Of a stretch of 64,000 nt of DNA, positions 3,946-63,814 are shown piece by piece; position 1 is the stretch's first letter; each line of letters starts with the position of its first letter. The DNA is from a virus. A model generated the notes under the pieces. It did not search any database. It worked only from the letters and a program-made list of their open reading frames with translations, and was not told the DNA's origin. The position numbers and the translations under genes were made by a program. Location: the IMG/VR virus record IMGVR_UViG_3300045988_109200, positions 25,243 through 89,242 of that record, one strand, 5' to 3'.

Positions 3946-4791
3946 ATGGAAAAACTGTATTGCTACGATAATGAAATCATAAAATGGACTTACGGCGATA
4001 ACCTGTATTGCTTGCATATTCAGCACGACGACGTTGCAGACAATAACCCTCGTTGGTGGGACGACCACGATTCCGTGATGGCTTGTTTCCATCCTCGTTA
4101 CCGTCTTGGTGATAAGGTCGATGCAAGCACACCGGAAGAGTTTTGGAACAATCTTGTTTACGAGATGTGCGAGCCAGAAGAAATTATCAATGCACTTATT
4201 AACAAGAAAACCATTGATGTAATTGCAGAAAAGAGTATTCGTGATGATACATACTATCTTTCTGTTCTTACTGATGATGGAGAATATACTCATTTTTGTC
4301 AGGGTTTGAAGGAGAATGAAATCCCAGTATATGCTGAGGGAGAATTATCCATTAAGGATTGTCAAATTCTTCTTGATACGTATATCGTATGGCTTCCACT
4401 CTGGTTACATGACCACTCTAGCCTATCTATGGATTGTGATACACGATTCAGAGGTTCGTGGGACGATAGCAATGTTGGTTGGATTGTTACAAAAGTTCCT
4501 AGCGGTTCTGATGTTTACAAAACAGAAGCGGAACGAATCATGCGTGATGAGGTTAAGACCTATAGTGATTATCTTTCCGGTGAGAATTACGGCTATACGC
4601 TTTACAAAGAGGAACACGGAGAGTGGAAAGAAATTGATAGAGCATTCGGATTTATCGGTTCCGATGTGCTTGAAAATGGTATCACATACAGCGCTGGTTG
4701 TGGCCTTGAAAAGGCATTAAAGGAAGATCGGTGCCGTATCGGTGATGCAGAGAAGGTTGTAACCATTACTTACAATTTTGATAAATGTTGA
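3946..4791 (+). CDS. hypothetical protein (281 aa)
   Basis: ORF track; start moved to ATG 3946 after aaagggag. Confidence 0.55.
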   Translation: MEKLYCYDNEIIKWTYGDNLYCLHIQHDDVADNNPRWWDDHDSVMACFHPRYRLGDKVDASTPEEFWNNLVYEMCEPEEIINALINKKTIDVIAEKSIRDDTYYLSVLTDDGEYTHFCQGLKENEIPVYAEGELSIKDCQILLDTYIVWLPLWLHDHSSLSMDCDTRFRGSWDDSNVGWIVTKVPSGSDVYKTEAERIMRDEVKTYSDYLSGENYGYTLYKEEHGEWKEIDRAFGFIGSDVLENGITYSAGCGLEKALKEDRCRIGDAEKVVTITYNFDKC

Positions 4792-5918: not shown

Positions 5919-6198
5919 GATTGCAGAAGATTTTATTTCTAAGATGAATCCATCTAGATGGGCTGGTGTTGGTCAAAAGCCTGATAATTTTGACACTAGA
6001 ATTAAAACATACACCATTGATGGTTTTTATGAATATGAGCTTGATGTTTCATATGATGAAGATGAGCTTGGTTACGTTGTTATGCTTGAAATAAGATGGG
6101 CAGACGATGGAGAGTTAATTTACGTTCTTGACACTCAAAGGGTTAATTCTGAAGATGCAATCGAATACTCAATAAATTCTCTTATTGATAATCTTTAA
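5905..6198 (+). CDS. hypothetical protein (97 aa)
   Basis: ORF track. Confidence 0.45.
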   Translation: MTAREIAEDFISKMNPSRWAGVGQKPDNFDTRIKTYTIDGFYEYELDVSYDEDELGYVVMLEIRWADDGELIYVLDTQRVNSEDAIEYSINSLIDNL

Positions 6199-6223
6199 TA
6201 GAATAATATAAAGGAGAATGAAT

Positions 6224-6397
6224 ATGACAAAATTTGAGAAACAGACGGTTATTAACGCATTGCATTTTTATAGCGAATATTGTTGCAACCACAGTGAAAA
6301 ATCTGCGAATATGATAGCACAGAAATGTACGGCTGAAGGATTGCTTTATATGTTTCAATCTATTCTGGATGAAAAGGCAGGAAGTGTAAAAATCTAA
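6224..6397 (+). CDS. hypothetical small protein (57 aa)
   Basis: ATG after aaggagaatgaat; below ORF-track cutoff. Confidence 0.35.
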   Translation: MTKFEKQTVINALHFYSEYCCNHSEKSANMIAQKCTAEGLLYMFQSILDEKAGSVKI

Positions 6398-6417
6398 ATA
6401 GAATCGAGGTTTTAAAA

Positions 6418-6663
6418 ATGTGGACTTTTAATAGGATTTATCTTCGGGAAAGTTGTATTTTGCTTGTTGAGGAGGACGGAGAAAAGAGTGCAATCACAAC
6501 AAGTGCATATGACTTAATAAGAATGTACAATAACGGCGAGAGTGAATGTCCTAGTGATAACGCAAAGGTTATTTATTGCTCGATTTTTAATGTAAAAATG
6601 AAATGTAAAACGTTCAAAGAACTTATGGATATGCTTGAGAAAATTGTAGCTGATTGTTGTTGA
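6418..6663 (+). CDS. hypothetical protein (81 aa)
   Basis: ORF track. Confidence 0.45.
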   Translation: MWTFNRIYLRESCILLVEEDGEKSAITTSAYDLIRMYNNGESECPSDNAKVIYCSIFNVKMKCKTFKELMDMLEKIVADCC

Positions 6664-6673
6664 GGTTTTAGAT

Positions 6674-6907
6674 ATGAAAAATAAAGCAGTGGTTGTTGTT
6701 TATGACGATACGATGTGTAATGGTCCTTACCGTGTAGAGCACAAAACAATGGAAGATGCAGTAGAGTCTGTTAATAATGATTTTGAAAGTCTGATGAAAG
6801 AACTGCGAGATGAAGGCTATGAACCTGAATGGATTCGTGACGGTCATCATATGCTTGAGGTTTATGTTCCGAATACGTCTATTAACGCATGGTGGGATTT
6901 TGAGTAA
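6674..6907 (+). CDS. hypothetical protein (77 aa)
   Basis: ORF track. Confidence 0.45.
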   Translation: MKNKAVVVVYDDTMCNGPYRVEHKTMEDAVESVNNDFESLMKELRDEGYEPEWIRDGHHMLEVYVPNTSINAWWDFE

Positions 6908-9901: not shown

Positions 9902-10141
9902 ATGCCTACTATCAGAGGAAACGGACACTGTAAGGTTTGTGGTGCGCCGGCTGCTATAAATCATGAGTATTGTGATCATTGCCGCAGGATAGTAAGAATC
10001 GAAGCGCGACAGGCTTATGAAAGAAAGAGACGAGAACAGGAACGAAGCAAAAAGCCAATCTTGACATTCAGCGATGTTATTAAACTTGCGGATGCCGAGG
10101 GATTGTCTTACGGAAAATACTGTTTAAAGTATGGGATTTGA
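9902..10141 (+). CDS. zinc-ribbon protein (79 aa)
   Basis: CKVCG...CDHC motif. Confidence 0.45.
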   Translation: MPTIRGNGHCKVCGAPAAINHEYCDHCRRIVRIEARQAYERKRREQERSKKPILTFSDVIKLADAEGLSYGKYCLKYGI

Positions 10142-10151
10142 GGTGAATGTG

Positions 10152-10970
10152 ATGAGTGCAGTTGTTGAAAGAAAAGAAGAACAGATATCTAAATTGGTCT
10201 ATTTTAATCCTAAACCTTCCGTTCCGGCGAAAAAGCGTGGTGTTACAAAAAGTAAGCAGAAGCGTAAGCGTAATATTTCTCCAATTAGAAGCTTGGATGA
10301 TGTTCAAATGATTTCGGAATACTTCTGGGATAAAAAGCAATATCGCAATTGGTGTCTATTTAATGTCGGCATTGCAACTGGGTTGCGTGCTAGTGACTTG
10401 CTTAAATTGAAAGTTTCTGATATGTCTTACTGTCTTTATAATGGAAAAATTGAGGTGGTTGAGGACGCAGGAACTTGCATCGTCGAAGAAAAGACTTCCA
10501 AATATCGTGAAATCATTCTTACTCCAGAAGCGAGAGACATCGTTGAAACGTACATTAAGATTGCAAATCTTGGATATGACGATTGGATGTTTCCGTCTCG
10601 GCAGGGGAGTTGGAAAAAGTCGTTGAGGACAAATGGTGGAGATGGGAAAACTGGTATTCCTCATATTGCAGAACCCAAAAAAGCCGGTGATCCTATTGAT
10701 GTTGATTCTTTTGCTCGTATCCTTCGTAATGCTGGTAGAGATTTGAATCTTAATTATAAGATTGCGTCTCATTCTTGCCGTAAGACATTTGGTTATCGTG
10801 AGATGTGTCTTAATAAGGATGATAACCAGGCATTGTCTTGGATTCAGGGTCAGTTGAATCATAGTAGTCAGGATATTACATTACGGTACGTTGGTTTTGA
10901 TGAGGATAAGGCAAAAGAATATTATAAGAAGACTTTTTATGGTGTGAATACACACAGCTTGGAAGACTGA
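10152..10970 (+). CDS. tyrosine site-specific recombinase (integrase/Xer-like, 273 aa)
   Basis: GLRASDL (Arg I), HSCRKTF (HxxR), LNHSS, LRYVG (catalytic Tyr) motifs; basic N-terminal tail. Confidence 0.65.
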   Translation: MSAVVERKEEQISKLVYFNPKPSVPAKKRGVTKSKQKRKRNISPIRSLDDVQMISEYFWDKKQYRNWCLFNVGIATGLRASDLLKLKVSDMSYCLYNGKIEVVEDAGTCIVEEKTSKYREIILTPEARDIVETYIKIANLGYDDWMFPSRQGSWKKSLRTNGGDGKTGIPHIAEPKKAGDPIDVDSFARILRNAGRDLNLNYKIASHSCRKTFGYREMCLNKDDNQALSWIQGQLNHSSQDITLRYVGFDEDKAKEYYKKTFYGVNTHSLED

Positions 10971-17089: not shown

Positions 17090-17108
17090 AAATATTTTTG
17101 AAAACCTA

Positions 17109-17137
17109 TTGACTTCTGTAAAGGTATCCTGTATAAT
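17109..17137 (+). promoter_or_regulatory. consensus sigma70 promoter TTGACT-17-TATAAT, overlapping a 21-bp conserved motif copy in minus orientation
   Basis: perfect spacing and hexamers; spacer/-10 is GTATCCTGTATAATATAG. Confidence 0.6.
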
Positions 17138-17180: not shown

Positions 17181-17600
17181 ATGGACAACAATATTGACCC
17201 AAAGGTCGGAGAGGTTTGGTTGGTTGATCTATCCAATGCGACAGGTCATCAGCAGCGCGGTATTCGACCGTTCGTTGTGACGAGCAACAATAAGCGCAAC
17301 TTCTTTAGTCCAACAATTAAAGGGAATCCGTTGTCTTCCAGAATATACAAGCGCTCTCCGGTTCATGTTCTACTCTCAAAGGAAGATTGTGATTTCCTAG
17401 AGGTTGATAGTATCGTTCTATGTGAAGAGACTGATACACTTAACAAAGGACAGTTCATTAAAAAACTTGGTGTCTTGTCGGAGCGTCAGATGAATATGAT
17501 CGCAATGGCAAGATGCAAGGATGAACCGTTTTTGCTTGCAGCATTCCTGAGCGGCGTACAACATACCATGGAATTTCAGAATTTTGCCGCATTTGCTTGA
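17181..17600 (+). CDS. MazF/PemK-family toxin-like endoribonuclease (139 aa)
   Basis: VGEVWLVDLSNATGHQQRGIRPFVVTS N-terminus matches the PemK/MazF signature. Confidence 0.7.
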   Translation: MDNNIDPKVGEVWLVDLSNATGHQQRGIRPFVVTSNNKRNFFSPTIKGNPLSSRIYKRSPVHVLLSKEDCDFLEVDSIVLCEETDTLNKGQFIKKLGVLSERQMNMIAMARCKDEPFLLAAFLSGVQHTMEFQNFAAFA

Positions 17601-17653: not shown

Positions 17654-18580
17654 ATGCTTACTGAAGAAAAAATCAAAGCTTTTGCCGAAAAGTATTCTGA
17701 TAGAAGCGGTGAGTTTGTTGCATCGACGATGCGTCACGTCATGGATTACGAGGCCGAGCGTGGGTATGAGTTGTTTGACTTCACAAAAGATGATTTCGTA
17801 AAGATGTTTGCCAAATATAATTGGGTGAATTCGAGTCGTTCGTTTAAAAATGTGAAGTCAATAATCACAGGCTACATCAAAAGTGAAAACGAAACAAGCA
17901 TGTATGATCTGGCTGACTTTTCAGAGAGCGATGTAAGCGCAGATGATATGTACAATGACAGTTATTTTGCGTCGGTTGACGAATTTGTTGACTTCTTAAA
18001 TAAGTACGAAGAGCCATATCAGATTCGTATGAACGTAATTGCTGTTTTGTACTGGATTGGTCTTACTTCCGATGAGATTTCTAATCTAACAATTAACGAT
18101 GTGGATTTTGAATCTAATACCGTTCTTGATAAGACTGATGTTGACGCAAGGTTAATGGATATTATCAAGCAATGTTACGAGATGAAACAGTATGAAGCCC
18201 CCAATAAGAGCGGTTATAGAACATTTTATGTCATGAATGGCGATTATATCCTACGCAAAACGAAGGATAAACCCGGTGTAAACAGTGATCCAAAGACGTC
18301 TATAATTTCAATTCATGTCTATTTTTCGAGGTTGAACGATATCCTCGAAAAAAGGCATCATTCAAAAACCTTAGATCAAAGATATTTAGCCAGAAATTGT
18401 GAGTATATCAAGGTTTATAACTACTGTAAAACTCATCCAAAATTTAATCTTGCAGAACTTAGTTTCGGAAATGGTAAAGGTCCTCTTGCGGACATTATCG
18501 GAAGAAAGTGCAGTAAAGTTGCCTATCTTAGTTTCCGGCAAGGATATAAAGGTTGGGTTGAATATTTCCATGAAAATTAA
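17654..18580 (+). CDS. hypothetical protein, possibly degenerate tyrosine-recombinase-like fold (308 aa)
   Basis: ORF track; LYWIGLTSDEISNLTINDVDF segment resembles recombinase box I, but no clear HxxR/Y. Confidence 0.45.
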   Translation: MLTEEKIKAFAEKYSDRSGEFVASTMRHVMDYEAERGYELFDFTKDDFVKMFAKYNWVNSSRSFKNVKSIITGYIKSENETSMYDLADFSESDVSADDMYNDSYFASVDEFVDFLNKYEEPYQIRMNVIAVLYWIGLTSDEISNLTINDVDFESNTVLDKTDVDARLMDIIKQCYEMKQYEAPNKSGYRTFYVMNGDYILRKTKDKPGVNSDPKTSIISIHVYFSRLNDILEKRHHSKTLDQRYLARNCEYIKVYNYCKTHPKFNLAELSFGNGKGPLADIIGRKCSKVAYLSFRQGYKGWVEYFHEN

Positions 18581-18651: not shown

Positions 18652-20871
18652 ATGCAGATGAGAACACTTTTACTGTTCCGTGGAGCACCCGGTTGCGGGA
18701 AGTCCACCTATATTAAAGAGCATAATCTTGAGCAGTACGTATTGAGTGCTGATACACTTCGCCTTATGTGCCAGAGCGCACAGGAAACACCTGATGGGCA
18801 GATGGAGATTTCTCAGCAGAATGATGATGTTGTATGGGAGATGCTTTTCAAACTGCTTGAGGTGCGGATGAGCCATGGCGAGTTTACTGTGATTGATGCA
18901 ACGAATTCCAAGACGGTCGAAATGAATTATTATAAGAATCTTGCAAAACAGTATCGTTATCGGATGTATGTTATTGATATGACGGACCTTCCGATCGAGG
19001 AATGCAAACGAAGAAACGCTCAGAGAGAATGGCTAAAGCGAGTTCCTGAAGCGGCTATTGATAAGATGTACGCTCGGTTTGCTACTCAAAAAGTTCCTTC
19101 TGGCGTGACAGTTCTTCCTTCTACTACGGATGTGATGTCCGATTTGAACTACTGCCCGAATGACTTTAACCAGTGGAAAAAGATACATATCATCGGTGAT
19201 ATTCATGGCTGCTATACCTGCTTGAGTGAATACCTTGGTGAGATGAAGGACGACGAGCTTTATATCTTCGTTGGTGATTATCTCGATCGTGGCATCGAAA
19301 ACGTTGAGGTATTCAAGTTCTTGTGTGATGTTGTAAATAACAACCGCAAGAATGTGATCCTTTTGGAAGGGAACCACGAGCATTGGCTGAACAAGTGGGG
19401 GCATGATAAACCGGTTCAAAGTGAAGAGTTTGCAAACTACACTCGTCCGCAGCTCTTTAAAGCCGGTATTGACAAGAACACTGCTCGTAAGATCTATTCC
19501 AGAGTCGGCCAGTGTGTCTACTTTGAGTATGATGGTAAGCGGTATTTCGTAAGTCACGGTGGTCTGAGCTATCTTCCTTATTTTCTTCCGTTCGTGTCTG
19601 CGGATCAGATGATTAAAGGCGTAGGCCGCTATCCTGATATACTGACCGTGGCTGAGTCTTGGGAAAAGTCGATGCCGGATAGCTATATTCAGATCTTCGG
19701 CCATCGAAATGTACAGGATGTTCCTATTGATATGGGTCATCGGTGCTACAATCTTGAAGGCAAAATCGAGTTTGGTGGATATCTTCGTTGTGTGGAGCTT
19801 GAACACGGTCAGCCTATCAAATGCGTAGAAACCAAGAATGATGTATTCCGAAAAGAGGAGCCAAAGACTGAAACTGCCGTTGAAATGAAAACTGAGTTCG
19901 ATAACGCAGAACTTGTTAGTAAGATGCGTCAAAGCAAATATGTGTTTGAGAAGCGATTCGGAGATATTTCTTCTTTCAACTTCTCTCGTGAAGCATTTTA
20001 TAAGAAGCACTGGGATGAGGTTTCTACCAAAGCAAGAGGGTTGTTCATTAACACAAAGACGAATAAGATTGTAGCTCGAAGCTATGATAAGTTCTTTGCG
20101 GTTGATGAGCGGAATGAAACGAGAATTGGAAACCTACAGAACACTTTGAAGTTCCCGGTGACTGCATATCTAAAAGAGAACGGATTTCTTGGTATCATTT
20201 CGTATGATGCAGAACAGGATGGTCTGTTCATTGCAAGTAAATCCACTCCTGATGGGCCTTTTGCAGATATGTTCCGAAAGATTCTCATGGATACGACTTC
20301 TGATGAAGATCGTAAGAATCTGAAAGAAGTTGCAAAAGAGAATGGCTCCATCATCTTCGAGGTGATTGATCCTGTGAATGATGCACATATCATCGAATAT
20401 AAGAAACCGCACATTGTTTTGCTGGATATTATTGCAAATGATATGAATTTCAGTGTAATGGATTATGATGATTTGAAGCGTGTAGCCGAGAAGTGTCATC
20501 TGCAGATTAAGGAGAAGGTTAAAACCTTTGAGAACTGGAGTGAATTCTATCCTTGGTACGAAGAAGTCATGAACGAGAACTATCTGCATCATGGTTTTGA
20601 ACACGTTGAAGGCTTTGTTTTGCGAGACAGCAATAATTTCATGTTTAAGCTGAAGCTTCCGTATTATAAGCACTGGAAGTTCTTGCGTGGTGTCATGCAG
20701 AGCGTTCAAAAACGTGGCTATTATGAAAATACCGCAAAGTTGTTTACTGCCGAGGATAACCTGTTCTATGGTTGGATGCGTGAACAACGAGAGAAAGATC
20801 AAGAGTCTTTCTGCAAGAAGGGTATTATTCAGCTGCGGAATGAGTTCTACGCAAGTCAGCAGAAGAGCTAA
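18652..20871 (+). CDS. Pnkp-like trifunctional RNA end-healing/sealing enzyme (739 aa)
   Basis: N-terminal GAPGCGKST Walker A; central GDIHG/GDYLDRG/GNHE calcineurin-type phosphoesterase motifs; C-terminal region with a KxxG lysine motif, proposed ligase-like (assumption). Confidence 0.65.
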   Translation: MQMRTLLLFRGAPGCGKSTYIKEHNLEQYVLSADTLRLMCQSAQETPDGQMEISQQNDDVVWEMLFKLLEVRMSHGEFTVIDATNSKTVEMNYYKNLAKQYRYRMYVIDMTDLPIEECKRRNAQREWLKRVPEAAIDKMYARFATQKVPSGVTVLPSTTDVMSDLNYCPNDFNQWKKIHIIGDIHGCYTCLSEYLGEMKDDELYIFVGDYLDRGIENVEVFKFLCDVVNNNRKNVILLEGNHEHWLNKWGHDKPVQSEEFANYTRPQLFKAGIDKNTARKIYSRVGQCVYFEYDGKRYFVSHGGLSYLPYFLPFVSADQMIKGVGRYPDILTVAESWEKSMPDSYIQIFGHRNVQDVPIDMGHRCYNLEGKIEFGGYLRCVELEHGQPIKCVETKNDVFRKEEPKTETAVEMKTEFDNAELVSKMRQSKYVFEKRFGDISSFNFSREAFYKKHWDEVSTKARGLFINTKTNKIVARSYDKFFAVDERNETRIGNLQNTLKFPVTAYLKENGFLGIISYDAEQDGLFIASKSTPDGPFADMFRKILMDTTSDEDRKNLKEVAKENGSIIFEVIDPVNDAHIIEYKKPHIVLLDIIANDMNFSVMDYDDLKRVAEKCHLQIKEKVKTFENWSEFYPWYEEVMNENYLHHGFEHVEGFVLRDSNNFMFKLKLPYYKHWKFLRGVMQSVQKRGYYENTAKLFTAEDNLFYGWMREQREKDQESFCKKGIIQLRNEFYASQQKS

Positions 20872-20990: not shown

Positions 20991-21075
20991 GCCAAGGTGC
21001 TGCAAATGGGAGACAGGGCGAGCCCAAACCTCGCTGTGGAAACACATGCGGTTTCGAATACCGTCCTTGGCACCA
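20991..21075 (+). tRNA. tRNA-Leu(CAA)-like, type II, CCA encoded, C33 unusual
   Basis: acceptor GCCAAGG/CCTTGGC; T arm GCGGT-TTCGAAT-ACCGT; anticodon stem GCGAG/CTCGC with loop CCCAAAC; 13-nt variable hairpin. Confidence 0.5.
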
Positions 21076-21100
21076 AAATTTAAAAACAATTTCGTTAAAT

Positions 21101-22024
21101 ATGGGAGGTAAGGTTACGAAAAAGATTGATAAGTTTACAAAAGAAGAAATTGAACAAGCTTTTAAAGAAAGCAACAACTGGGCAATGGTTGCAGAGAAAC
21201 TCGGTTATAGTAAGTTTGGAGGAAGTTCTAGGGATGTAATTCAATCTTATGCGAATGAAAATAATATTGATACTTCTCATTTTACAGGACAGGGCTGGAG
21301 CAAGGGGAAGGTTGATCTGACTCGATTTCGTAAAGGCGTTCCATTCAGTAATCTTCGTGAGTCTCTTTTGAATATACGGCAACATCAATGTGAGAGATGT
21401 AAAAATACCGAATGGTTCGGGAAGGAGATCCCGTTAGAAGTTCATCATATTGATGGAAATCGATTAAACAACGAACTTAATAACCTTCAACTCTTGTGTC
21501 CCAATTGCCACGCACAAACAGAGAACTGGAAAGGTAAAAATGTTAATCATAAGAAGGAAATAACCGACGAACAGCTTATAGAAGCTTTAAAAAATTCATT
21601 GTCAATTAGCGAAGCACTTAGAAAAGTTGGCGTAAATTACATGGCGAAAAGTTGGTTTGAAAAAGCAAGGCAACTTATGCTTGAGAACAATATTGATTTT
21701 CCTAAAAGAGAAGTAGTACAAAAAGAAAAGAAAGAACGTAAAAAACGTACAATAAAATATTGCTCCAAATGTGGGAAGGAACTTTACAAAAGAACAAAAG
21801 GAAATTTGTGTAGGGAGTGCCTTTCTAATCTCCCATACAGAAGATATCACGAGTTACCAGAAAAAGAACAGCTTGAGAAAGAAATCTATAAAATGTCCTT
21901 CTCAAAAATTGGTGATAAGTATGGGGTAACTGGAAATTCTATCCGTAAATGGTGCAAACATTATGGACTTCCTTATAGAAGAGCTGATATAGATAAAATA
22001 TTAACTTCTTGTAGCAATACATAA
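21101..22024 (+). CDS. HNH endonuclease (307 aa)
   Basis: EVHHIDGNRLNN...LLCPNCH HNH motif; C-terminal repeats with CxxC pairs; sits inside the tRNA array. Confidence 0.7.
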   Translation: MGGKVTKKIDKFTKEEIEQAFKESNNWAMVAEKLGYSKFGGSSRDVIQSYANENNIDTSHFTGQGWSKGKVDLTRFRKGVPFSNLRESLLNIRQHQCERCKNTEWFGKEIPLEVHHIDGNRLNNELNNLQLLCPNCHAQTENWKGKNVNHKKEITDEQLIEALKNSLSISEALRKVGVNYMAKSWFEKARQLMLENNIDFPKREVVQKEKKERKKRTIKYCSKCGKELYKRTKGNLCRECLSNLPYRRYHELPEKEQLEKEIYKMSFSKIGDKYGVTGNSIRKWCKHYGLPYRRADIDKILTSCSNT

Positions 22025-22062
22025 TTTTAATAGATTGAGATGCTAAATCCTCAATCTTATAT

Positions 22063-22145
22063 GCTACCATGGCGAAATAGGCAGTACGCTTCGGTCTTAA
22101 AAACCGATGTCGAAAGACGTGCGGGTTCGACCCCCGCTGGTAGCA
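22063..22145 (+). tRNA. tRNA-Leu(UAA), type II
   Basis: acceptor GCTACCA/TGGTAGC; anticodon arm TCGGT-CTTAAAA-ACCGA; long variable arm; T arm GCGGG-TTCGACC-CCCGC. Confidence 0.6.
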
Positions 22146-22152
22146 CTAATAT

Positions 22153-22228
22153 CCGGGTGTAGCTCAGTTGGTATCGCACCTGTTTTGGGAACAGGGGACC
22201 GCAAGTTCAAATCTTGTCGCTCAGGCCA
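22153..22228 (+). tRNA. tRNA-Pro(UGG)-like with weak D stem and an acceptor mismatch
   Basis: anticodon arm CCTGT-TTTGGGA-ACAGG; T arm GCAAG-TTCAAAT-CTTGT; CCA encoded; acceptor 6/7 pairs including wobbles. Confidence 0.4.
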
Positions 22229-22255
22229 GTCCGAAAGGGTATGTAGAATTTTCAT

Positions 22256-22312
22256 TCACATTATTCCCAGCTCTCTGGAAACGGAGCAGTGTGACGTAGT
22301 AAGCTGGGTATA
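22256..22312 (+). repeat. tRNA-array spacer element copy A (structured hairpin CCCAGCT...AGCTGGG)
   Basis: about 55 nt conserved with copies at 22525 and 22748. Confidence 0.5.
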
Positions 22313-22315
22313 TGA

Positions 22316-22386
22316 TGCGCCATCGCCAAGCGGTAAGGCAGAGGACTTTGACTCCTCCATCACAGGTTCGACCCCTGTTGGCGCAA
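22316..22386 (+). tRNA. tRNA-Gln(UUG) with U1:A72
   Basis: acceptor TGCGCCA/TGGCGCA; anticodon arm GAGGA-CTTTGAC-TCCTC; T arm ACAGG-TTCGACC-CCTGT. Confidence 0.6.
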
Positions 22387-22391
22387 TTTAT

Positions 22392-22473
22392 GCGGATATG
22401 GTGGAGTGGCAGACACGCCAGATTTAGGATCTGGTGCTTCGGCGTGTGGGTTCGATGCCCACTATCCGCACCA
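22392..22473 (+). tRNA. tRNA-Leu(UAG), type II, CCA encoded
   Basis: acceptor GCGGATA/TATCCGC; anticodon arm CCAGA-TTTAGGA-TCTGG; variable hairpin; T arm GTGGG-TTCGATG-CCCAC. Confidence 0.65.
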
Positions 22474-22524
22474 CGGTCATAGAATGGTTGCGTACCGTTT
22501 TGTTGATCTCCTTTGACTGCCACT

Positions 22525-22580
22525 ATTATTCCCGGCTCGCCAGTGATGGTGCAGTAGTGCTTTGTAAGCTGGGTGATTGT
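22525..22580 (+). repeat. tRNA-array spacer element copy B
   Basis: TATTCCCGGCTCGCC...GTGCAGTAGTGCTTTGTAAGCTGGG. Confidence 0.5.
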
Positions 22581-22656
22581 GCAGCTATGGTGTTAGTGGT
22601 TAGCACATCTGCCTTCCAAGCAGAGAGGGCGGGTTCGAGTCCCGTTGGTTGCTCCA
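22581..22656 (+). tRNA. tRNA-Gly(UCC), CCA encoded
   Basis: acceptor GCAGCTA/TGGTTGC (two GU pairs); anticodon arm TCTGC-CTTCCAA-GCAGA; T arm GCGGG-TTCGAGT-CCCGT. Confidence 0.6.
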
Positions 22657-22747
22657 ATCTCGTATGGGTAGGATTTTTAGCGGTCAAATCCGGCTGCGCC
22701 TGTGCGAGATACCACCCCGAAATGGGCTAACGAAATTTTTCATGTGC

Positions 22748-22803
22748 GTTATTCTCGGCTCGCCCGAAAGAGTGCAGCGTGCCTTTGTAAGCCGAGTATC
22801 CCA
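22748..22803 (+). repeat. tRNA-array spacer element copy C (compensatory stem CTCGGCT/AGCCGAG)
   Basis: TTATTCTCGGCTCGCC...GTGCAGCGTGCCTTTGTAAGCCGAG. Confidence 0.5.
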
Positions 22804-22837
22804 GCCTAGTGATGCCAGTTGCTAGGTTGGTTCTTAT

Positions 22838-22913
22838 GCGACTGTAGTTCAATTGGTAGAGCGTCAGATTTCCAATCTGAATGTTGCGAGATCGTCCCCC
22901 GTCAGTCGCTCCA
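22838..22913 (+). tRNA. tRNA-Gly(UCC)-like second copy, noncanonical T loop, CCA encoded
   Basis: acceptor GCGACTG/CAGTCGC; D arm GTTC-AATTGGTA-GAGC; anticodon arm TCAGA-TTTCCAA-TCTGA. Confidence 0.5.
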
Positions 22914-23044
22914 CACGCAGCCCCTGACGCTGCACCGGTTGCTCAGAGCCGAAAGGAACCTATATGTTACGACATGGTTGCCAAGAGTGATCATATTGGA
23001 ACGCGACGTAGCTTTGATAGTAGGAATTAAATTCTGAGGTATAC

Positions 23045-23113
23045 GGCTGGATAGCTTAATGGTAAAAGCGCTCGGAAACACCGAGAGATGAGGTTCGATC
23101 CCTCCACTGGCAT
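23045..23113 (+). ncRNA. tRNA-like element (pseudo-tRNA?)
   Basis: canonical D arm TAGCTTAATGGTAAAAGC and T arm GGTTCGATCC, but a 5-bp stem with 5-nt loop replaces the anticodon arm and no complementary acceptor 3' strand. Confidence 0.3.
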
Positions 23114-23140
23114 CGCGCCGACGAAAGTTGGCGTTTATAT

Positions 23141-23216
23141 GGAATAGTAGCTCAGCTGGTTAGAGCCGACAACTTATAATTGTCAGACACGAGTTCAAAT
23201 CTCGACTATTCCACCA
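23141..23216 (+). tRNA. tRNA-Ile(UAU), CCA encoded
   Basis: acceptor GGAATAG/CTATTCC; D arm GCTC-AGCTGGTTA-GAGC; anticodon arm GACAA-CTTATAA-TTGTC. Confidence 0.6.
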
Positions 23217-23242
23217 GCCCGATAGGGCATACATAAAATCTG

Positions 23243-24116
23243 CTAGAACTTTTGTTTTAAATTATGTAAGGATGGATTTTCTGCCAAGCAAATTAGTGTC
23301 TGGTCTTGCAACGTAGAAATCGTTGCGCTCAATTCAGTTTGAACTAGAGCGCCTTTACCGCCACCTTCACATCCAGAGCGGATTTTTAGAGTGTAGGCTG
23401 CAGGTTCTGCGAATCGAGCCGAAGTCTCTCGATGGTCTGACTCCAATACTCGTCCAATTCCTTCTCTTCCAGACCTTCTTGTTCCTTCACTTTCTGCACC
23501 ACCTGTGACAGAGTTCCTGGATTCCACCATTCGATCATATCCAGCAACGCTTGCTTCAGGAGTTCGGGCAAAGGTTTTCCACGCCGGGATGCTCTCACAA
23601 GAATCCCCTGACATGCTCGTGCGCTCAAATAGAATTTCTGAGGCACGTTGTCCTCCAAAATCCATGACAAGCGCGATTCTCTGGCGACGCTGGGCGACTC
23701 CCCAGTATTTAGCGTCGAACAATCTCCATGCAATAGACCATCCATTACCGGAAATCGCTCCAGATTTTGCCCACTTCCCGTTCTTCCCTGAAGGTCGAGG
23801 AATTGAAACGTCTGGCTCGACAATGCGTGCAAATCTTTCCAACACACATCTGAAGTCTTCACCTTTGCTTGAGCTGAAAGCTCCTCTGACATTTTCCCAG
23901 ATTGCGAATTTTGGATATTCTCCATTAGTGGCCTCCCTCATTTCTGTAATCACACGAATCATTTCAAGGAACAATCCAGAGCGTTCACCAGCCAAACCTT
24001 CACGTTTACCGGCCTGACTCAAATCTTGGCATGGACTGCCTCCTGTGATACAGGAAACCGGTTCAATCTGCCACCCATGAAGTTGTGTAATATCTCCGTA
24101 ATGCTTCAGTTTTCAT
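23243..24116 (-). pseudogene. C5 cytosine DNA methyltransferase C-terminal half (motifs IV PCQ, VI ENV, VIII QRRQR, part of TRD)
   Basis: translation contains GGSPCQDLSQAG, ENVRG, QRRQR; SD AAAAGGAGGA plus ATG at 24116 lies in the +1 frame relative to the MTase frame at an A4 run (24110-24113); no motif I-III upstream. Confidence 0.6.
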
Positions 24117-24127
24117 TCCTCCTTTTC

Positions 24128-24148
24128 GTATCCTGTATTATATAGCTA
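24128..24148 (-). promoter_or_regulatory. conserved 21-bp motif copy (minus orientation), about 10 nt upstream of the SD of the minus-strand MTase fragment
   Basis: GTATCCTGTATTATATAGCTA on the + strand. Confidence 0.5.
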
Positions 24149-24229
24149 AAACTCAGAAAATGAGCGAAAAAATAATAGACGTATCAACGTCATGTTATTT
24201 CGTCGCCTATAAAACAAAAGATTTCGCCG

Positions 24230-24829
24230 GTGGTATTTGAGAGTCACAGTCAGGACGCTCGATACACTCAGCAGGGTGATACAAGTCCGACTTGTACTGC
24301 TCAGTGGGGAACGGGCGGTAATAATATGCCGCTGGTCGTTGAAAAGAAAGCCTTTGCAATGCAACGCATTGGTGAGTACAAGGAAAGTGAACACGCCAGC
24401 ACGATGAAATCTCGTGATTATAAGGACGCTACTGACCTGATTGCAGAGAAGGAAACGAAGAATCTACGATGGATTGTTCGCCGCTTGACTCCTTTGGAGG
24501 ATGAACGGTTACAGGGTTTCCCTGACGGATGGACTGATATCGGTGACTGGATTGATGAGAACGAAAAGAAGCATAAAACTTCTGACGCAGTTCGTTATAA
24601 GGCACTCGGCAATTCAATCGCATTACCGCAATGGTATTGGATTTTTCAGAAGATGAAACCGTATATCGGTGAGAATCCTACTCTTGGTAGCCTCTTCGAT
24701 GGGATCGGCGGCTTTCCGTTAGTATTTCAAAGCACATATGGTGAAGGTACTGCCATTTGGGGGTCAGAAATTGATAGCTTTTGCGTTGCAGTAACTAAGA
24801 AGCATTTTCCAGAAAAGCAAAGAGGATAA
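24230..24829 (+). CDS. C5 cytosine DNA methyltransferase fragment with permuted order (TRD tail, motifs IX and X, then motifs I and II), 199 aa
   Basis: RRLTPLEDERLQGFPDGWT (IX), YKALGNSIALP (X), then LGSLFDGIGGF (I) and SEIDSFCVAV..HFP (II); GTG start, no clean ATG. Confidence 0.55.
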   Translation: MVFESHSQDARYTQQGDTSPTCTAQWGTGGNNMPLVVEKKAFAMQRIGEYKESEHASTMKSRDYKDATDLIAEKETKNLRWIVRRLTPLEDERLQGFPDGWTDIGDWIDENEKKHKTSDAVRYKALGNSIALPQWYWIFQKMKPYIGENPTLGSLFDGIGGFPLVFQSTYGEGTAIWGSEIDSFCVAVTKKHFPEKQRG

Positions 24830-24831
24830 AA

Positions 24832-25107
24832 ATGGGAGCTTTTATTGCAAGACAGCCTAACGGTTTGCTGTGTCGGTTTTCTTCGGTGGTCGATTGTGTC
24901 ACCGATTACAACATGACCGAAGAAGAATATATCGAGATGTGTGCTGAAAAGGCACGAAAAGAAGCACGAGATGTTCTTGACCATTATATTAAGCCGTTTG
25001 AAATGGTTGACAGGTGTTTCTTCCCGAACAACATGACAATCGAAGAACACAAGCGGATTATGAAGGAAATGGAAAAGCCCGTTGACAAAGCAACTCATAT
25101 TCCGTAA
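24832..25107 (+). CDS. hypothetical protein (91 aa)
   Basis: ORF track; agaggataaaaATG. Confidence 0.45.
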   Translation: MGAFIARQPNGLLCRFSSVVDCVTDYNMTEEEYIEMCAEKARKEARDVLDHYIKPFEMVDRCFFPNNMTIEEHKRIMKEMEKPVDKATHIP

Positions 25108-25151
25108 TAAGAAAATCTCATAAAAGGCTAATTCAAACAAGAGGTGGTACG

Positions 25152-25382
25152 ATGAACAGCAAAATTCCTATCAATGCAACCATTGATTCCGGTTCCTTGA
25201 GTCTTCCGGCAAGTCCTATCTTCCAGAAGGAAAAGAGCACATATCTCTGTCCGTTCTGTGTAACGAAGCTAGAGAAGCTTGAACCGAAATGTCCAGAGTG
25301 TCATCACAAGATGGATTGGAGTGTGTGGATGGATAAGAACGCAAAGCACAATTATGCATTTGCTGAAAGTGGTGTGTTATGA
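25152..25382 (+). CDS. zinc-ribbon protein (76 aa)
   Basis: CPFC...CPEC. Confidence 0.45.
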   Translation: MNSKIPINATIDSGSLSLPASPIFQKEKSTYLCPFCVTKLEKLEPKCPECHHKMDWSVWMDKNAKHNYAFAESGVL

Positions 25383-25753
25383 AAGATTGGATGCACGCAA
25401 AAAAAAAAGAGATTGAGAACATGACTTTTGACCAAGCGAAGGAAATTGTAGAGAAACAAATTCGTCTTGGTAAAGAAGGAGACCAGTGGTGCCCTCGTGA
25501 GCATTTAGTAAAGGCTCTCGAAATCATTCTTTCAAAAGCTGAACTTTATGAGTTTAGAACAGATTACAAAGAGCCTCTTCTCGATGACGTTTATAAACAT
25601 TATGAGTGCCCGGTTTGTTATTACACACTATCAAATCTTGATAACTTCTGTCCACGTTGCGGACAATTACTTGATTGGCGATTTGTAAGGCATTGGGAGA
25701 GAACGATTCGTCCCACGCTTGAAAGACTGCAGAATGGGGAGGTGCAGGGTTGA
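25379..25753 (+). CDS. zinc-ribbon protein (124 aa)
   Basis: CPVC...CPRCG. Confidence 0.45.
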   Translation: MKDWMHAKKKEIENMTFDQAKEIVEKQIRLGKEGDQWCPREHLVKALEIILSKAELYEFRTDYKEPLLDDVYKHYECPVCYYTLSNLDNFCPRCGQLLDWRFVRHWERTIRPTLERLQNGEVQG

Positions 25754-26028
25754 ATATAGATTTCTTCCAACGACGTAAAACCCAGCTTGAGGATGCACTT
25801 CTTTTGAAAAATCAGGCAGTCGATATGCTTGATTATCTAAAGACGCATTGTATCAATAGCGACCAGTATTGTGCCATTCGAGATTACATTGAAGAAGCTG
25901 CGAAGATTCTGGAGAGTGACCTCGAATATGCAAACAACAAGCTACAGTCCGCATTCAGACCTAAGTATGGTCGGAACAACAGATTGACTCGTGCTCAATC
26001 TAAGATGTTCCGTGATAGAGAATATTAA
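25750..26028 (+). CDS. hypothetical protein (92 aa)
   Basis: ORF track. Confidence 0.45.
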   Translation: MNIDFFQRRKTQLEDALLLKNQAVDMLDYLKTHCINSDQYCAIRDYIEEAAKILESDLEYANNKLQSAFRPKYGRNNRLTRAQSKMFRDREY

Positions 26029-26045
26029 AAATGGGGTGATGCCGT

Positions 26046-26258
26046 ATGAACACATGTAAGAAAATATGTAACTGGTGTGGTCGTGAAATCAAGCCGATAG
26101 GTAGCGAGCAGGGAATCAGTTTTGAGCATCAATACTCTTATGGTAGCCAACTTGATGGCTCGCTTTTGAGTTTTGATTTGTGTCCTGAGTGTTCAGAACG
26201 GCTCCCAATAGTGCTCGGCGCAATGTTTGTACATAATCCATTAAAGGACAATTTCTAA
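26046..26258 (+). CDS. zinc-ribbon protein (70 aa)
   Basis: CNWCG...CPECS. Confidence 0.4.
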   Translation: MNTCKKICNWCGREIKPIGSEQGISFEHQYSYGSQLDGSLLSFDLCPECSERLPIVLGAMFVHNPLKDNF

Positions 26259-26403
26259 CGGTGAGTGCCGTATGAAATATAAGCCATCAATAAGCCAGAC
26301 GGAGGATAATACATAAAATGAATAGTGCATGAATTGATTCGAGACAATAAAAAGAAACATAAGTGATTATCAATGAAACAAAATTACATAAAGGAGACTT
26401 GAT

Positions 26404-27504
26404 ATGGCAGATAGAATTTTTAACCTTCCTCAGACCCGTGGTTCTTTTGAAATGGCTGGTAAGGTCACCGGCACCCAGCGTAGCAACTTCTATAACGAGA
26501 AGGAGACTAAGAGTGGTGTTATGCGCCGTGTCCTGAGCTTTGGTATTCAGACTTCCAATGAAAACACTTTCTATGTTGATCTGGCTGGTATGCCTCGTGA
26601 TAAGGTTTACTTCTTCCGCCGTGCCGATAAGGACAAGGGCATCGAGAAGGATAAGAAGGAAGTCGCTTGGAAGGATCGTCTGACTTATGTTGCACCGGAA
26701 GGCTACGACATGATTGGCGTTAAGGTTGGTGTTACCAAGAAGACGAATGAGTCTGGTAAGGTCGTCAACGACAACAAGACTCTGACCGACTTCGATGCAG
26801 CTAAGGAGATTTCCGAGAACCTGCATGACGGTGACAACGTGTATGTCCGTGGCAACATCGAGTACAGCACTTACAACGGCAAGCACCAGATTCGCTTTGT
26901 TCCTACTCAGGTTTCTCTGAGCTCTAAGGAAATTGACTTCGATGCAGAGGGTTTCGAGGAGCTGGCTCTGTTTACTCAGACCATTGTTTACACTGGTTGC
27001 CGCAAGAGCGATGAGTGCGATGAGGTAGTTGTCGATGCAAAGATCGTGAACTACAACACCATCGAGGATGCAGAGTTCTTCATTGACTATAAGGCAAACA
27101 CTCAGAATAAGGTTCTGGCTGATTCTATTCGTAAGCGTCTGAAGTCTTATACTAGTTTCGAGTGTTTTGGTCCCATCGTTAATCAGCAGAAGGTTGAGGA
27201 AGTTGAGACTGAGAATATCTGGGGTGGTCCTAACAAGATGAAGCGTCAGAGCACTCCGGCAGTTCGTAAGCTGTATATCGAGGGTGTTAATCCTGATTCC
27301 TTTGATCCGAATCCCGGCGATAAGGATGCAGAGTCTACCTATACTGAGGACAATATCTCCGAGGCACGGGCAAAGATTGCTGCCAACGCTCAGGCTAAGA
27401 AGGACTTCGATGGCAAGGCAGCTGAGAACGATACTTCTTGGTGGGGTGGTTCTAACAAGTCCACTGTGACTTCTGCTGATGAGGAAGATATCAACTGGGG
27501 CTAA
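26404..27504 (+). CDS. putative ssDNA-binding protein (366 aa)
   Basis: position ahead of recombination/replication genes; acidic C-terminal tail ending DEEDINWG; strongly biased codon usage; no diagnostic motif, so tentative. Confidence 0.35.
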   Translation: MADRIFNLPQTRGSFEMAGKVTGTQRSNFYNEKETKSGVMRRVLSFGIQTSNENTFYVDLAGMPRDKVYFFRRADKDKGIEKDKKEVAWKDRLTYVAPEGYDMIGVKVGVTKKTNESGKVVNDNKTLTDFDAAKEISENLHDGDNVYVRGNIEYSTYNGKHQIRFVPTQVSLSSKEIDFDAEGFEELALFTQTIVYTGCRKSDECDEVVVDAKIVNYNTIEDAEFFIDYKANTQNKVLADSIRKRLKSYTSFECFGPIVNQQKVEEVETENIWGGPNKMKRQSTPAVRKLYIEGVNPDSFDPNPGDKDAESTYTEDNISEARAKIAANAQAKKDFDGKAAENDTSWWGGSNKSTVTSADEEDINWG

Positions 27505-27518
27505 AATTTTTTAACCAT

Positions 27519-41187: not shown

Positions 41188-41225
41188 TAAAAAGTCTCCA
41201 TCCCGGAGGCTTAAAATTCTCTCTT

Positions 41226-54299: not shown

Positions 54300-54737
54300 A
54301 TGGATACTAGCTTTAATTTAAAGCACGTTCCCGGAAGCTTTGCATGGATTATTGAGCGAGAGAATGCCGACAAAAACTGTAATAAATGTGATACCAACGG
54401 AAATGTGAATATAACATTCTTTGACGGTACTCAGAAAAAGTGGCGTTGCCCAATTTGCCTTGGATACAAAAAGGTTGTAAAAGACGTATATCGAATCAAA
54501 AAATGTAAAATCAAGAGAGTAAACATCGGAGCAAGGATTAACGAAGATGGCAATTTAACGGTAGAAGAAGAATCTATTCAACTAGAAGGAACCAACACAA
54601 GGGACAATATCGATCCTGATTTTGAGTATTACATTCGTAATATTTATGACACAGAAAGTGATGCGAAAATTGCGGCAAACGAAATCAATAAAGCACGAGG
54701 GAACACTGATGAATTATATGAAGATTGTCCCATGTGA
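54300..54737 (+). CDS. hypothetical Cys-rich protein (145 aa)
   Basis: ORF track. Confidence 0.45.
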   Translation: MDTSFNLKHVPGSFAWIIERENADKNCNKCDTNGNVNITFFDGTQKKWRCPICLGYKKVVKDVYRIKKCKIKRVNIGARINEDGNLTVEEESIQLEGTNTRDNIDPDFEYYIRNIYDTESDAKIAANEINKARGNTDELYEDCPM

Positions 54738-62583: not shown

Positions 62584-62656
62584 AATCAGAGCTTTGGTGT
62601 GGTATACTTATAGTGTCACATCAAGGCTCTTTATAGTAAATGTAAGGAGTCTGTTT

Positions 62657-63814
62657 ATGGAAAGACGTAAAGATAGTAAAGGTAGAGTCTTAAAAGACGG
62701 CGAAAGCCAAAGAAAGGATGGAATATATCAATATCGATGGACTGATACAACTGGAAAACGTCACACAATTTATGCGAAAGATTTAAAAGTTCTTCGAGAA
62801 AAAGAAAATAATGCTAGTAAAATAATTTCTCAAAGGATAAACTTTGAAGGCGGTAAAATAACAACATATCAGTTTCTTATAAGATATTACGAATTTAAAA
62901 AAACATCAATAAAGAAATCGAGCTTGAAGACATATCATACAACAATAAACAAGTTGAAAGATACGTCTATTGGTAATACAAAAATTATTGACGTAAAGAT
63001 TTCAGACGCAAAACAACTGATTATTGATTTTAGTCAGAATGGGTTAAAATACAGTACAATAAAAACTATAAAAACACTGATAAAAGCTGCGTTTAAAATG
63101 GCTCAAGAAGATGATTTAATTTTAAAGAATCCGTTTGATTTTCAGCTGAATGAAGTTATAAAAAACGACACTAAAAAAAGAGTCGCATTAACTGAACAAC
63201 AGTATTCTGATTTGCTTGAATTCGTTTTATGTGATCAAGTCTTTCGTAAGTATTATGATGACATCGTATTTTTGTATGAAACTGGAATTCGCGTAAGTGA
63301 ATTTTGTGGATTAACACTTTCGGACATTGATTTTGTGAAACATGAAGTTGTAATTGATAAACAACTCATCAAAACCTCAAAAGGAGAACTCTACATCACA
63401 GATCCAAAATCAAAAGCTGGGTTTCGGACGATTCCATTGAGCGCTGAAGCATATCACGCGATTAAAGCCATTATCAATCGTCGGCCACAAACAAACGAGA
63501 TGATGGTCGATGGTTATTGTGGTTTCATCTCAATTCATTCAAATGGAACCCCGAAGACCTCTTGGAACATTGAATATGAGCTAAGAGAAATTGCAAAGGC
63601 GTATAACAGCCTTTACCCAGAGTGCCAATTACCAAATCTTACACCTCACGTTCTTCGACACACTTTTTGTACCAGAAAAGTTAGCAGCGGCATGAACATC
63701 AAGGCAGTTCAATATCTAATGGGGCATAGCTCAGTACAAATTACGCTCGATGTATACACATCAATCGACGCTGATATGATAAAAACTGAGTTTGCAAAAG
63801 TGGCACAGATGTGA
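62657..63814 (+). CDS. int: Tn916-family tyrosine integrase (385 aa)
   Basis: N-terminus MERRKDSKGRVLKDGESQRKDG and C-terminus LRHTFCT...MGHSS...LDVYT (HxxR, Y) match Tn916 Int. Confidence 0.85.
   Translation: MERRKDSKGRVLKDGESQRKDGIYQYRWTDTTGKRHTIYAKDLKVLREKENNASKIISQRINFEGGKITTYQFLIRYYEFKKTSIKKSSLKTYHTTINKLKDTSIGNTKIIDVKISDAKQLIIDFSQNGLKYSTIKTIKTLIKAAFKMAQEDDLILKNPFDFQLNEVIKNDTKKRVALTEQQYSDLLEFVLCDQVFRKYYDDIVFLYETGIRVSEFCGLTLSDIDFVKHEVVIDKQLIKTSKGELYITDPKSKAGFRTIPLSAEAYHAIKAIINRRPQTNEMMVDGYCGFISIHSNGTPKTSWNIEYELREIAKAYNSLYPECQLPNLTPHVLRHTFCTRKVSSGMNIKAVQYLMGHSSVQITLDVYTSIDADMIKTEFAKVAQM

Follow-up and report, generated by a model that had tools for sequence, protein, structure and literature searches.

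A probable inversion switch in a naturally permuted C5-cytosine methyltransferase gene of a human gut phage

The window analysed here is a stretch of 64,000 nucleotides (64 kb) from the IMG/VR virus record IMGVR_UViG_3300045988_109200 (positions 25,243 to 89,242), which derives from a large human gut phage genome of about 130 kb. Within it, two pieces of a gene for an orphan C5-cytosine DNA methyltransferase diverge from each other on opposite strands. Comparison with related loci makes it likely, in our judgement, that the segment 23249-24220 is a recurrent and probably recombinase-driven ON/OFF inversion, a 'partial intergenic inverton', and that the window holds its OFF state. The segment bears a terminator-like hairpin, a promoter motif and a Shine-Dalgarno sequence (SD), followed by a probable CTG start codon and codons 1-288 of the gene. 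In the majority orientation it fuses in frame with the fixed sequence 24221-24829 to encode one enzyme of 489 amino acids (aa), which would be the ON state. In the window's orientation, promoter motif and 5' part face the neighbouring tRNA array, the encoded protein ends prematurely at ..KQKF, and the 3' third with the S-adenosylmethionine (AdoMet or SAM)-binding motifs X, I and II has neither a promoter motif nor a ribosome-binding site, which would be the OFF state. The flip would be reversible. A fuller reading, in which a temperate phage of about 130 kb uses a recombinase to invert, reversibly, the promoter and 5' two-thirds of its own methyltransferase gene and so makes both methylated and unmethylated virions (virus-encoded epigenetic phase variation, or bet-hedging), and in which this enzyme is the first natural permutant of Type B to be recognised and founds a large family that had been overlooked, we consider about evenly balanced between right and wrong. 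The features on which the argument depends are the following.

20991..23216: tRNA array (ARAGORN)
23141..23216, plus strand: tRNA-Ile(tat), final gene of the tRNA array and fixed left flank just outside the switch (ARAGORN)
23249..23259: left inverted repeat (IR-L), left boundary of the segment, CTTTTGTTTTA, perfect over 11 bp
24210..24220: right inverted repeat (IR-R), right boundary, TAAAACAAAAG, perfect over 11 bp; in the collinear state it codes for L-K-Q-K between modules of the target recognition domain (TRD)
23243..24109, minus strand: piece 2, codons 1-288 of the intact gene, truncated in the window's orientation (PF00145, E=7.7e-23)
24221..24829, plus strand: piece 1, codons 289-489 of the intact gene, in fixed DNA (PF00145, E=1.9e-11)
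24107..24109, minus strand: CTG, the probable start codon; the GGAGG at 24122-24118 precedes it by 8 nt
24114..24116, minus strand: out-of-frame ATG, 1 nt after the SD, starting a 17-codon overlapping frame (MKTEALRRYYTTSWVAD, then stop) at 24064-24116
24127..24149, minus strand: 23-nt phage promoter-like motif TTAGCTATATAATACAGGATACG, which contains TATAAT and is directed into piece 2
24168..24191, minus strand: terminator-like hairpin GACGTTGATACGTC followed by a T-run, from a consensus scan only and of putative function

A search of IMG/VR with each half returned more than 100 related loci; throughout, orientation was read from consensus assemblies and contigs (IMG/VR, a metagenome collection, ENA and Logan). 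Most related loci have both halves on one strand, with piece 1 directly after piece 2, an arrangement we call collinear. In L082 and L001, which are 99% identical to the window, the segment is reversed, and a single 489-codon open reading frame (ORF) results that ends in ..KKHFPEKQRG and a stop. The order there is tRNA-Ile, CTTTTGTTTTA, hairpin, promoter motif, GGAGG and the 489-codon ORF, and the in-frame junction ..HNLKQK/ISPVVFESH.. falls exactly at TAAAACAAAAG, in the TRD. The whole segment is contained in 75 unique IMG/VR contigs, of which 71 have the collinear orientation and 4, namely the window, L013, L024 and L026, the flipped one, and a junction-pattern scan of the independent metagenome collection gave about 44 collinear against 2 flipped loci. 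The collinear orientation is found in about 95% of related phage genomes. In many samples of ENA and Logan, at least 20 contigs in all encode a stand-alone piece 1 identical to the window's 199-aa sequence; at the places examined there, piece 2 lay on the opposite strand in 10 of 10, and the repeat pair was present in 9 of 10. Both orientations were not seen in one sample by exact-protein and junction look-ups, which have little power on consensus contigs.

All 13 flipped copies in which both junctions could be read have identical junctions and perfect 11-bp repeats. By segment sequence the flipped genomes form at least six groups, and the nearest relative of each is a collinear genome: 0/949 differences separate both the L162 group from L001 and L026 from L017, 1/949 separates L013 from L103, 4/949 separate L024 from L030, 10/950 the window's group from L009, and 24/949 L163 from L427. 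L013 is also close to the collinear L113, with 2/949 differences over the segment, 2/4000 over the flank to its right and 1/1500 over that to its left. Since each flipped group lies nearest to a collinear genome, the inversion has taken place, or has gone back, many times; these comparisons show both orientations to occur in nature with identical junctions, and the flip to have been repeated. The 11-bp repeat is shorter than typical assembler k-mers, and the junctions should therefore be supported by reads. This, together with the finding of the arrangement in several collections that differ in origin, excludes an artefact of assembly.

The flipped unit, judged from these genomes, is 23249-24220, i.e. 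the minus-strand piece plus the promoter-bearing intergenic region. The 11-mer is confined to IR-L and IR-R in the 64-kb window (expected 0.15), and the two form the perfect core of the longest inverted pair of the region, whose arms lie at 23233-23259 and 24210-24236. Outside the 11-mers the sequence is the same in both states and inside them it is reverse-complemented: the inner side of IR-L reads TAAG/TAGG.. in collinear and AATTATG.. in flipped genomes, and the left flank ..CTGCTAGAA that abuts the repeat is kept in relatives. The perfect pair stands at both junctions in the 13 flipped and in most collinear genomes examined, and the repeat is kept at both positions across mosaic backgrounds, its intergenic arm included. 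A first hint that the minus-strand piece and not the plus-strand piece had been turned came from the window itself, where nearly all ORFs lie on the plus strand and the fragment 23243-24109 is the sole sizeable minus-strand coding sequence nearby. The repeats also mark the boundaries of mosaic modules in loci L001-L124, which combine varied left flanks, segment alleles (CTG or GTG start) and TRD-tail alleles (..ATTTCGCCGG.. or ..ATTTGTGTCTTGAATGATCAGGG..); they may thus serve in addition as inter-phage recombination joints that shuffle TRD modules.

A preliminary description of this DNA had placed the inversion elsewhere. It recognized two divergent methyltransferase halves, and translation confirms the motifs that it assigned to them, both halves matching PF00145; the divergent region with a conserved motif is likewise real, measuring about 120 bp with a motif of 23 nt (5 copies in the window against 0 expected), and belongs to the invertible segment. 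The notion of an invertible ON/OFF switch fits the comparative data in kind, while its place and topology were wrong. As proposed, an 8-bp inverted repeat (AATGCTTC at 24100-24107, GAAGCATT at 24799-24806) would invert 24108-24798 and create an M.BssHII-like enzyme on the minus strand, with +1 frameshifts at A4 runs. The repeat exists, at chance level (the 2.4 kb contain 96 inverted pairs of 8 nt or more). Its arms correspond to two distinct codon triplets for K-H-aromatic, which canonical relatives (..KRHFPE-MKHLGD..) keep separated by 5 residues (FPEMK) that the junction would drop. The arrangement was found in 0 of about 135 related loci examined, the actual breakpoints being the 11-bp repeats at 23249-23259 and 24210-24220, and the fusion lies in the TRD rather than between motifs II and IV (..TKKH/YGDITQL..). 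Nor does the frameshift hold up: the ATG at 24116 that it was to bring into use is out of frame in every relative, the 'AAAA' between ATG and CTG is variable (AACT, GAAA, AAGA, AAAC, GGAA), and the in-frame CTG at 24109-24107 is invariant in all contigs of the group. Relatives with a Type H/J-like order do exist (P0202 and P0252, which start in the TRD, with X fused to I and II contiguous with III) and speak for this model, but we regard it as practically untenable.

The flipped copies are not remnants. Flipped back in silico, 13 of 13 copies with both junctions in the locus yield an uninterrupted 489-codon ORF. The ratio of non-synonymous to synonymous substitution rates (dN/dS) among flipped copies is 0.07-0.08 in pairwise comparison, and between two flipped sequences, the window and L162, there are 7 synonymous as against 2 non-synonymous changes. 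By these measures the flipped copies stay intact under purifying selection. The idea that the locus is a decaying, rearranged pseudogene, which the preliminary description had entertained, or else an artefact of assembly, can point to the interruption of the gene in the window and to the failure of gene callers on it. Yet intact ORFs and a dN/dS of about 0.08 refute decay, flipped loci are present in each of three collections that differ in origin (IMG/VR, ENA and Logan), and we hold this explanation to be very improbable. On the window, gene callers miss the interrupted gene and call a spurious 179-aa alternative-frame ORF instead; the intact, collinear gene they truncate by starting it at a TTG that lies beyond the codon of the catalytic Cys. 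Standard phage annotation is thus blind to such switches.

What argues most for catalysis is the spectrum of damage in this allele group: about 45 contigs contain 4 inversions and 1 nonsense mutation (L116). That inversion is the commonest disrupting change suggests that it is catalysed rather than accidental. Against this we have weighed the alternative that the inversion recurs unprogrammed, by illegitimate or short-homology recombination at the 11-bp repeats (template switching or a phage recombination system), with no dedicated invertase and no regulated reversibility, and that flipped variants are seen because in some hosts a phage that lacks the methyltransferase is at no disadvantage or is even favoured. 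Several observations favour it and weigh against a programmed switch. The repeats are only 11 bp long, and around them there is little further similarity, so that an extended recombinase site is not evident; the association of repeat perfection with flipping (4/37 against 0/38, Fisher p = 0.054) is suggestive only. The segment has no adjoining recombinase gene, the 279-aa candidate described below lies 13 kb away, and among the matches listed this recombinase was not detected in the flipped contig 098476. Flipped lineages persist over many samples, the window's own at 0-1.3% divergence, and switching may be slow or the flipped state stably inherited. Finally, a 4-nt insertion at the catalytic site in another allele group shows that loss of the gene is tolerated. 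An uncatalysed event at 11 bp is nevertheless hard to reconcile with identical junctions in at least six lineages, with the 4:1 excess of inversions over other disruptions, with the intactness and low dN/dS of flipped copies (including the 7:2 ratio within a flipped lineage), and with a repeat that is conserved at both positions over mosaic backgrounds, even in its intergenic arm. We thus rate unprogrammed inversion as a real but unlikely alternative and prefer a recombinase-driven switch.

The allele group with that insertion has a GTG start (MKHYGSICEIDG..) and comprises L028, L042 and L044-L078 (e.g. L044 at about 4050-4140; protein P0102). Four nucleotides, TAGC, are inserted directly after the catalytic Cys codon (CCTTGT/TAGC/CAGGAT) and bring in a stop codon as well as a shift of frame; about 30 diverse contigs nevertheless keep the remaining ~450 codons open. 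This allele could be a pseudogene that has spread, or the insertion could mark a site of +1 recoding, given the resemblance of UGU UAG C to CUU UGA C of prfB. Recoding of TAG was considered and rejected, as the local tRNA arrays lack a suppressor tRNA and the apparent 'TAG after PC' is the 4-nt TAGC insertion. In L083, L084 and L085 (L083 at about 6165-6692; proteins P0101 and P0112), motif IX is interrupted between QGFP and (D)GWT by an in-frame insertion of 173-176 codons, which codes for an HNH_3 endonuclease that has a helix-turn-helix and lengthens the ORFs to 662-665 aa. It may represent a homing endonuclease, an intron or an intein-like element within the methyltransferase gene.

Which enzyme would turn the segment? 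Two candidates are encoded in the window.

10131..10970, plus strand: 279-aa tyrosine recombinase, candidate invertase (PF00589, E=1.9e-15; phrog_216)
62594..63814, plus strand: 406-aa Tn916-type tyrosine integrase, alternative candidate (PF00589, E=1.2e-28, and PF02920)

In alignment, the 279-aa protein has a complete set of catalytic residues (R86, H214-x-x-R217, H244 and Y253), and it occurs as two alleles in at least 81 related contigs, among them the flipped 109221 and 7000000549_000032. A serine recombinase was not found among the 30 window ORFs covered by the Pfam scan. We infer that a site-specific recombinase would catalyse the flip, the 279-aa protein and the integrase being candidates. 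A third, integrase-like protein of 308 aa (17654-18580) was considered and rejected as the invertase: its only match, a weak one, is to the core-binding domain at the N terminus of MrpR-type proteins, and where the catalytic arginine of box I should stand it reads GLTSDE. This MrpR-like protein, present in at least 138 related contigs at 3-6 kb upstream of the methyltransferase, is more likely repressor-like.

The expression signals explain why the window's orientation is most simply read as OFF. Piece 2 contains motifs III (GDIT), IV (GGSPCQ, 24044-24027), VI (ENV, in WENVRG) and VIII (QRRQR) and the first TRD modules by translation; in the flipped state it reads past the repeat into TTC TAG and ends in ..NLKQKF, and no alternative partner ORF for it was found beside tRNA-Ile. 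Piece 1 contains the rest of the TRD modules, motif IX (RRLTPLEDERLQGFPDGWT / RRLTPLEDERLQGFPDGW), motif X (LGNSIALP), a linker, motif I (LFDGIGGF, 24692-24715) and motif II (SEIDSF..KKHFPE), with LFDGIGGF and SEID coded at 24692-24780 and the end at ..KKHFPEKQRG; it matches positions 233-323 of the PF00145 profile. As listed, its ORF 24230-24829 begins at GTG 24230. In the flipped state neither a promoter motif nor a recognizable SD was found for piece 1, which has only this GTG or another weak start, and it is the lack of both signals that makes OFF the simplest reading. The 23-nt motif otherwise occurs just upstream of the SD and ATG of plus-strand genes (copies at 27518 and 41294; a copy at 41225 shares the intergenic region upstream of 41294). 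In the collinear state the hairpin would separate the tRNA array from the promoter of the methyltransferase gene. The CTG is the probable start codon, being the economical reading of the alignments: its position is taken by ATG (MKHLGDIT) in a phage family of 58 kb and by GTG in another allele group. The 17-codon ORF that overlaps it, opened by the conserved out-of-frame ATG, may attenuate translation. No terminator was found downstream of piece 1 in the stretch scanned up to 25200, and the next copy of the motif is at 27518; the segment's promoter therefore probably also drives the small genes at 24832-27504, whose expression may change with the flip.

An alternative reading of the flipped state is that both fragments are made and assemble into an active two-subunit methyltransferase, in which case the inversion would alter expression or regulation without switching the enzyme off. 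Enzymes that are split in nature, as cited in PMC5944983, likewise have their break in the variable region, here within the TRD; an experimental precedent exists in fragments of a Type B permutant of M.MpeI, and purifying selection acts on the flipped copies. Reversible switching would explain this selection equally well, however, and analogous fragment pairs of M.SssI and other pairs of M.MpeI failed to complement. Given also that flipped piece 1 has no promoter motif or SD and a weak start, and that about 95% of genomes keep the gene fused, we think a two-subunit enzyme improbable and retain the ON/OFF reading.

Read in the collinear state, the gene encodes an enzyme of unusual topology. The intact 489-aa protein has its motifs in the order III-IV-VI-VIII-TRD-IX-X-I-II, and the canonical order from I to X was not found in it. 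In a phmmer search against the Protein Data Bank (PDB), residues 3-89 aligned with M.HhaI 57-136 and residues 444-489 with M.HhaI 16-59; a weak and non-significant stretch paired residues 373-391 with M.HhaI 271-289. Canonical relatives read ..VTKRHFPE-MKHLGDITK.., from which it follows that the first residue of the permuted protein corresponds to a Met inside the canonical chain, between motifs II and III, and that its C terminus comes shortly after HFPE. By motif order the intact enzyme is hence a circular permutant of Type B that occurs naturally, the cut falling between II and III. The circular permutation claimed in the preliminary description is real, as the M.HhaI alignment shows, with the order III..X-I-II in place of IX-X-I-II/IV... 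The assignment to the M.BssHII type falls away, because the N terminus encoded by the intact gene, (M)KHYGDIT, falls between II and III, and the variable region is continuous.

The topology is not confined to this phage. A homologue search covered 1.84 billion cluster representatives, and we considered the best 150 clusters at 50% identity: at least 104 of these are Type B, starting with M[KI]H[LY]GDIT and having motif IV at about residue 23 and motif I about 28 residues past X, and another 22 are canonical. Members of the Type B family occur in gut phages and in genomes of Oscillospiraceae. When 74 diverse Type B homologues were aligned, P26, Q28, E72, N73, V74, R372, R373, G415, N416, F444, G446, S467 and E468 were invariant, and C27, Q138, R139, R140 and R142 were conserved in at least 90%. 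All PF00145 motif hallmarks are present, namely F-x-G-x-G in motif I, the acidic residue of II, P-C-Q in IV, E-N-V in VI, Q-x-R-x-R in VIII, R-x-L-T-x-x-E-x-x-R-L-Q-G-F-P in IX and G-N-S/A-I/V in X. AlphaFold2 on 16 sequences of more than 85% identity gave a predicted local distance difference test score (pLDDT) of 31 and was discarded. Repeated with the 74 Type B sequences, the model of homologue P0106 has a pLDDT mostly above 90 for residues 1-165 and 370-484, which includes the C-terminal beta-alpha-beta of motifs I and II, and the TRD lacks a confident model. Its top Foldseek matches are M.HhaI, M.HaeIII and M.MpeI at probability 1.0, with DNMT1 and DRM also found. From motifs and model, the enzyme looks functional as a C5-cytosine methyltransferase.

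Type B topology was defined by Slaska-Kiss et al. for engineered permutants, among which Type B was the most active (PMC5944983). That 2018 study expressed surprise that nature seemingly avoids Type B and speculated about a handicap in SAM affinity (PMC5944983). The present locus and at least 104 related clusters indicate that the topology is used in nature. Like the engineered permutants cp62M.MpeI and cp58M.SssI and those of M.HaeIII (PMC5944983), the enzyme has its N terminus between II and III and a short X-I linker, with the cut exactly between HFPE and MKH(L/Y)GDIT of the canonical relatives; unlike them, it belongs to a large natural family. The M.BssHII type (M.Alw26I, M2.Eco31I, M.Esp3I and M2.BsaI; Type H/J) shares a permuted ten-motif C5-methyltransferase fold with X followed by I, but has its termini in the variable region and IX-X before I-VIII, whereas here the termini lie between II and III. 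Two proteins of the same family, P0202 and P0252, have both termini in the TRD, with IX-X-linker-I-II-III-IV..VIII between them, and their X-to-I linker is that of the Type B proteins. Canonical, Type B and Type H-like orders in one family are, on sequence, as expected from a tandem-fusion intermediate; alternatively, the two proteins could be fragments of tandem genes. A family with three orders and a shared X-to-I linker offers a natural test-bed for the model of permutation by duplication.

How does the locus compare with known inversion systems? Phase-variable methyltransferases are well known in bacteria, and in the literature we searched we found none encoded by a phage. The fim switch of E. 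coli uses the tyrosine recombinases FimB and FimE, 9-bp inverted repeats and a promoter on a 314-bp invertible element. The present segment is similar in having very short repeats around a promoter-bearing element with ON/OFF output, the tyrosine recombinase being here only a candidate. It differs in that the element also holds the ribosome-binding site, the start codon and 59% of the coding sequence, so that the flip cuts the protein, in that the candidate recombinase is not adjacent, and in residing in a phage rather than in a bacterial chromosome. Phages do invert parts of their genomes: Mu G/Gin and P1 C/Cin use an adjacent serine invertase and sites of about 26 bp to swap tail-fibre C-termini and so change host range. 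Common to these systems and ours are inversion within a phage genome and two heritable phage types; here the target is DNA modification, and no serine recombinase was found among the window ORFs scanned. M.AquI alpha/beta has in common with the flipped state a break in the variable region, at the TRD. In the phage, however, the split is an orientation state of one gene, the fragments are divergent and the second has no expression signals of its own; with about 95% of relatives fused, this is not an M.AquI-like split.

Closer in target are the bacterial restriction-modification invertons, i.e. Type I hsdS shufflons, Type IIG, BREX PglX and DISARM DrmMI (PMC9881135, PMC7672463, PMC10028968, PMC11741434). 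In these, too, one repeat lies within methyltransferase-related coding sequence, and they give epigenetic heterogeneity. They are cellular and mostly swap specificity cassettes, while here an orphan C5-cytosine methyltransferase of a phage undergoes a simple ON/OFF cut; no alternative coding cassette is brought into frame, as would be seen in hsdS-type swapping. The word 'cytosine' is absent from the text of PMC9881135. Overall, the locus is best regarded as an inversion-controlled methyltransferase that stands out in being phage-encoded, in cutting an orphan C5-methyltransferase in two and in revealing a natural Type B family. In the collinear state, the phage DNA would be methylated and protected from cognate Type II restriction; in the flipped state it would be unmethylated and escape methylation-dependent Type IV restriction, and a population with both states would hedge between the two. 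If this is true, a phage that flips its own DNA modification could evade both types of host restriction, which would affect the modelling of gut phage host range and of phage-host arms races. In lysogens, the switch might also toggle the methylome of the host.

As to the phage and its host, an INPHARED megablast with 22000-26500 gave just three short matches to unannotated 'Bacteriophage sp.' records, and no annotated relative among them. Permuted full-length homologues of 36-43% identity occur in genomes of Faecousia and Oscillospiraceae, and this occurrence points to the Oscillospiraceae/Faecousia side as the host clade. The MrpR-like protein, a YorF-family match in the relative L167 and the genome size of 130 kb suggest an SPbeta-like temperate phage. 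Beside the methyltransferase, the Tn916-type integrase and the MrpR-like protein, the window codes for replication and nucleotide-metabolism genes. Adjoining the tRNA array is a gene for a 739-aa fusion protein (18652-20871), in which a polynucleotide-kinase-like AAA_33 domain is joined to a metallophosphatase and to a T4-type RNA ligase 1; it looks like a tRNA-repair enzyme and could counter host anticodon nucleases. Within the array, between tRNA-Leu(caa) and tRNA-Leu(taa), lies an HNH endonuclease gene (21101-22024; 307 aa, HNH/HNH_3 and zinc finger). A PemK/MazF-type toxin gene (17181-17600) follows a near-consensus sigma-70 promoter (TTGACT-17-TATAAT, about 17101-17129), which is overlapped by a reverse-strand copy of the 23-nt phage motif. 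Finally, ThyX, a radical-SAM/4Fe-4S (Fer4_12) protein and a FolD-like methylene-tetrahydrofolate dehydrogenase/cyclohydrolase are encoded at 44833-45624, 54622-55263 and 61565-62392, a folate and thymidylate module that is unusually complete for a phage.

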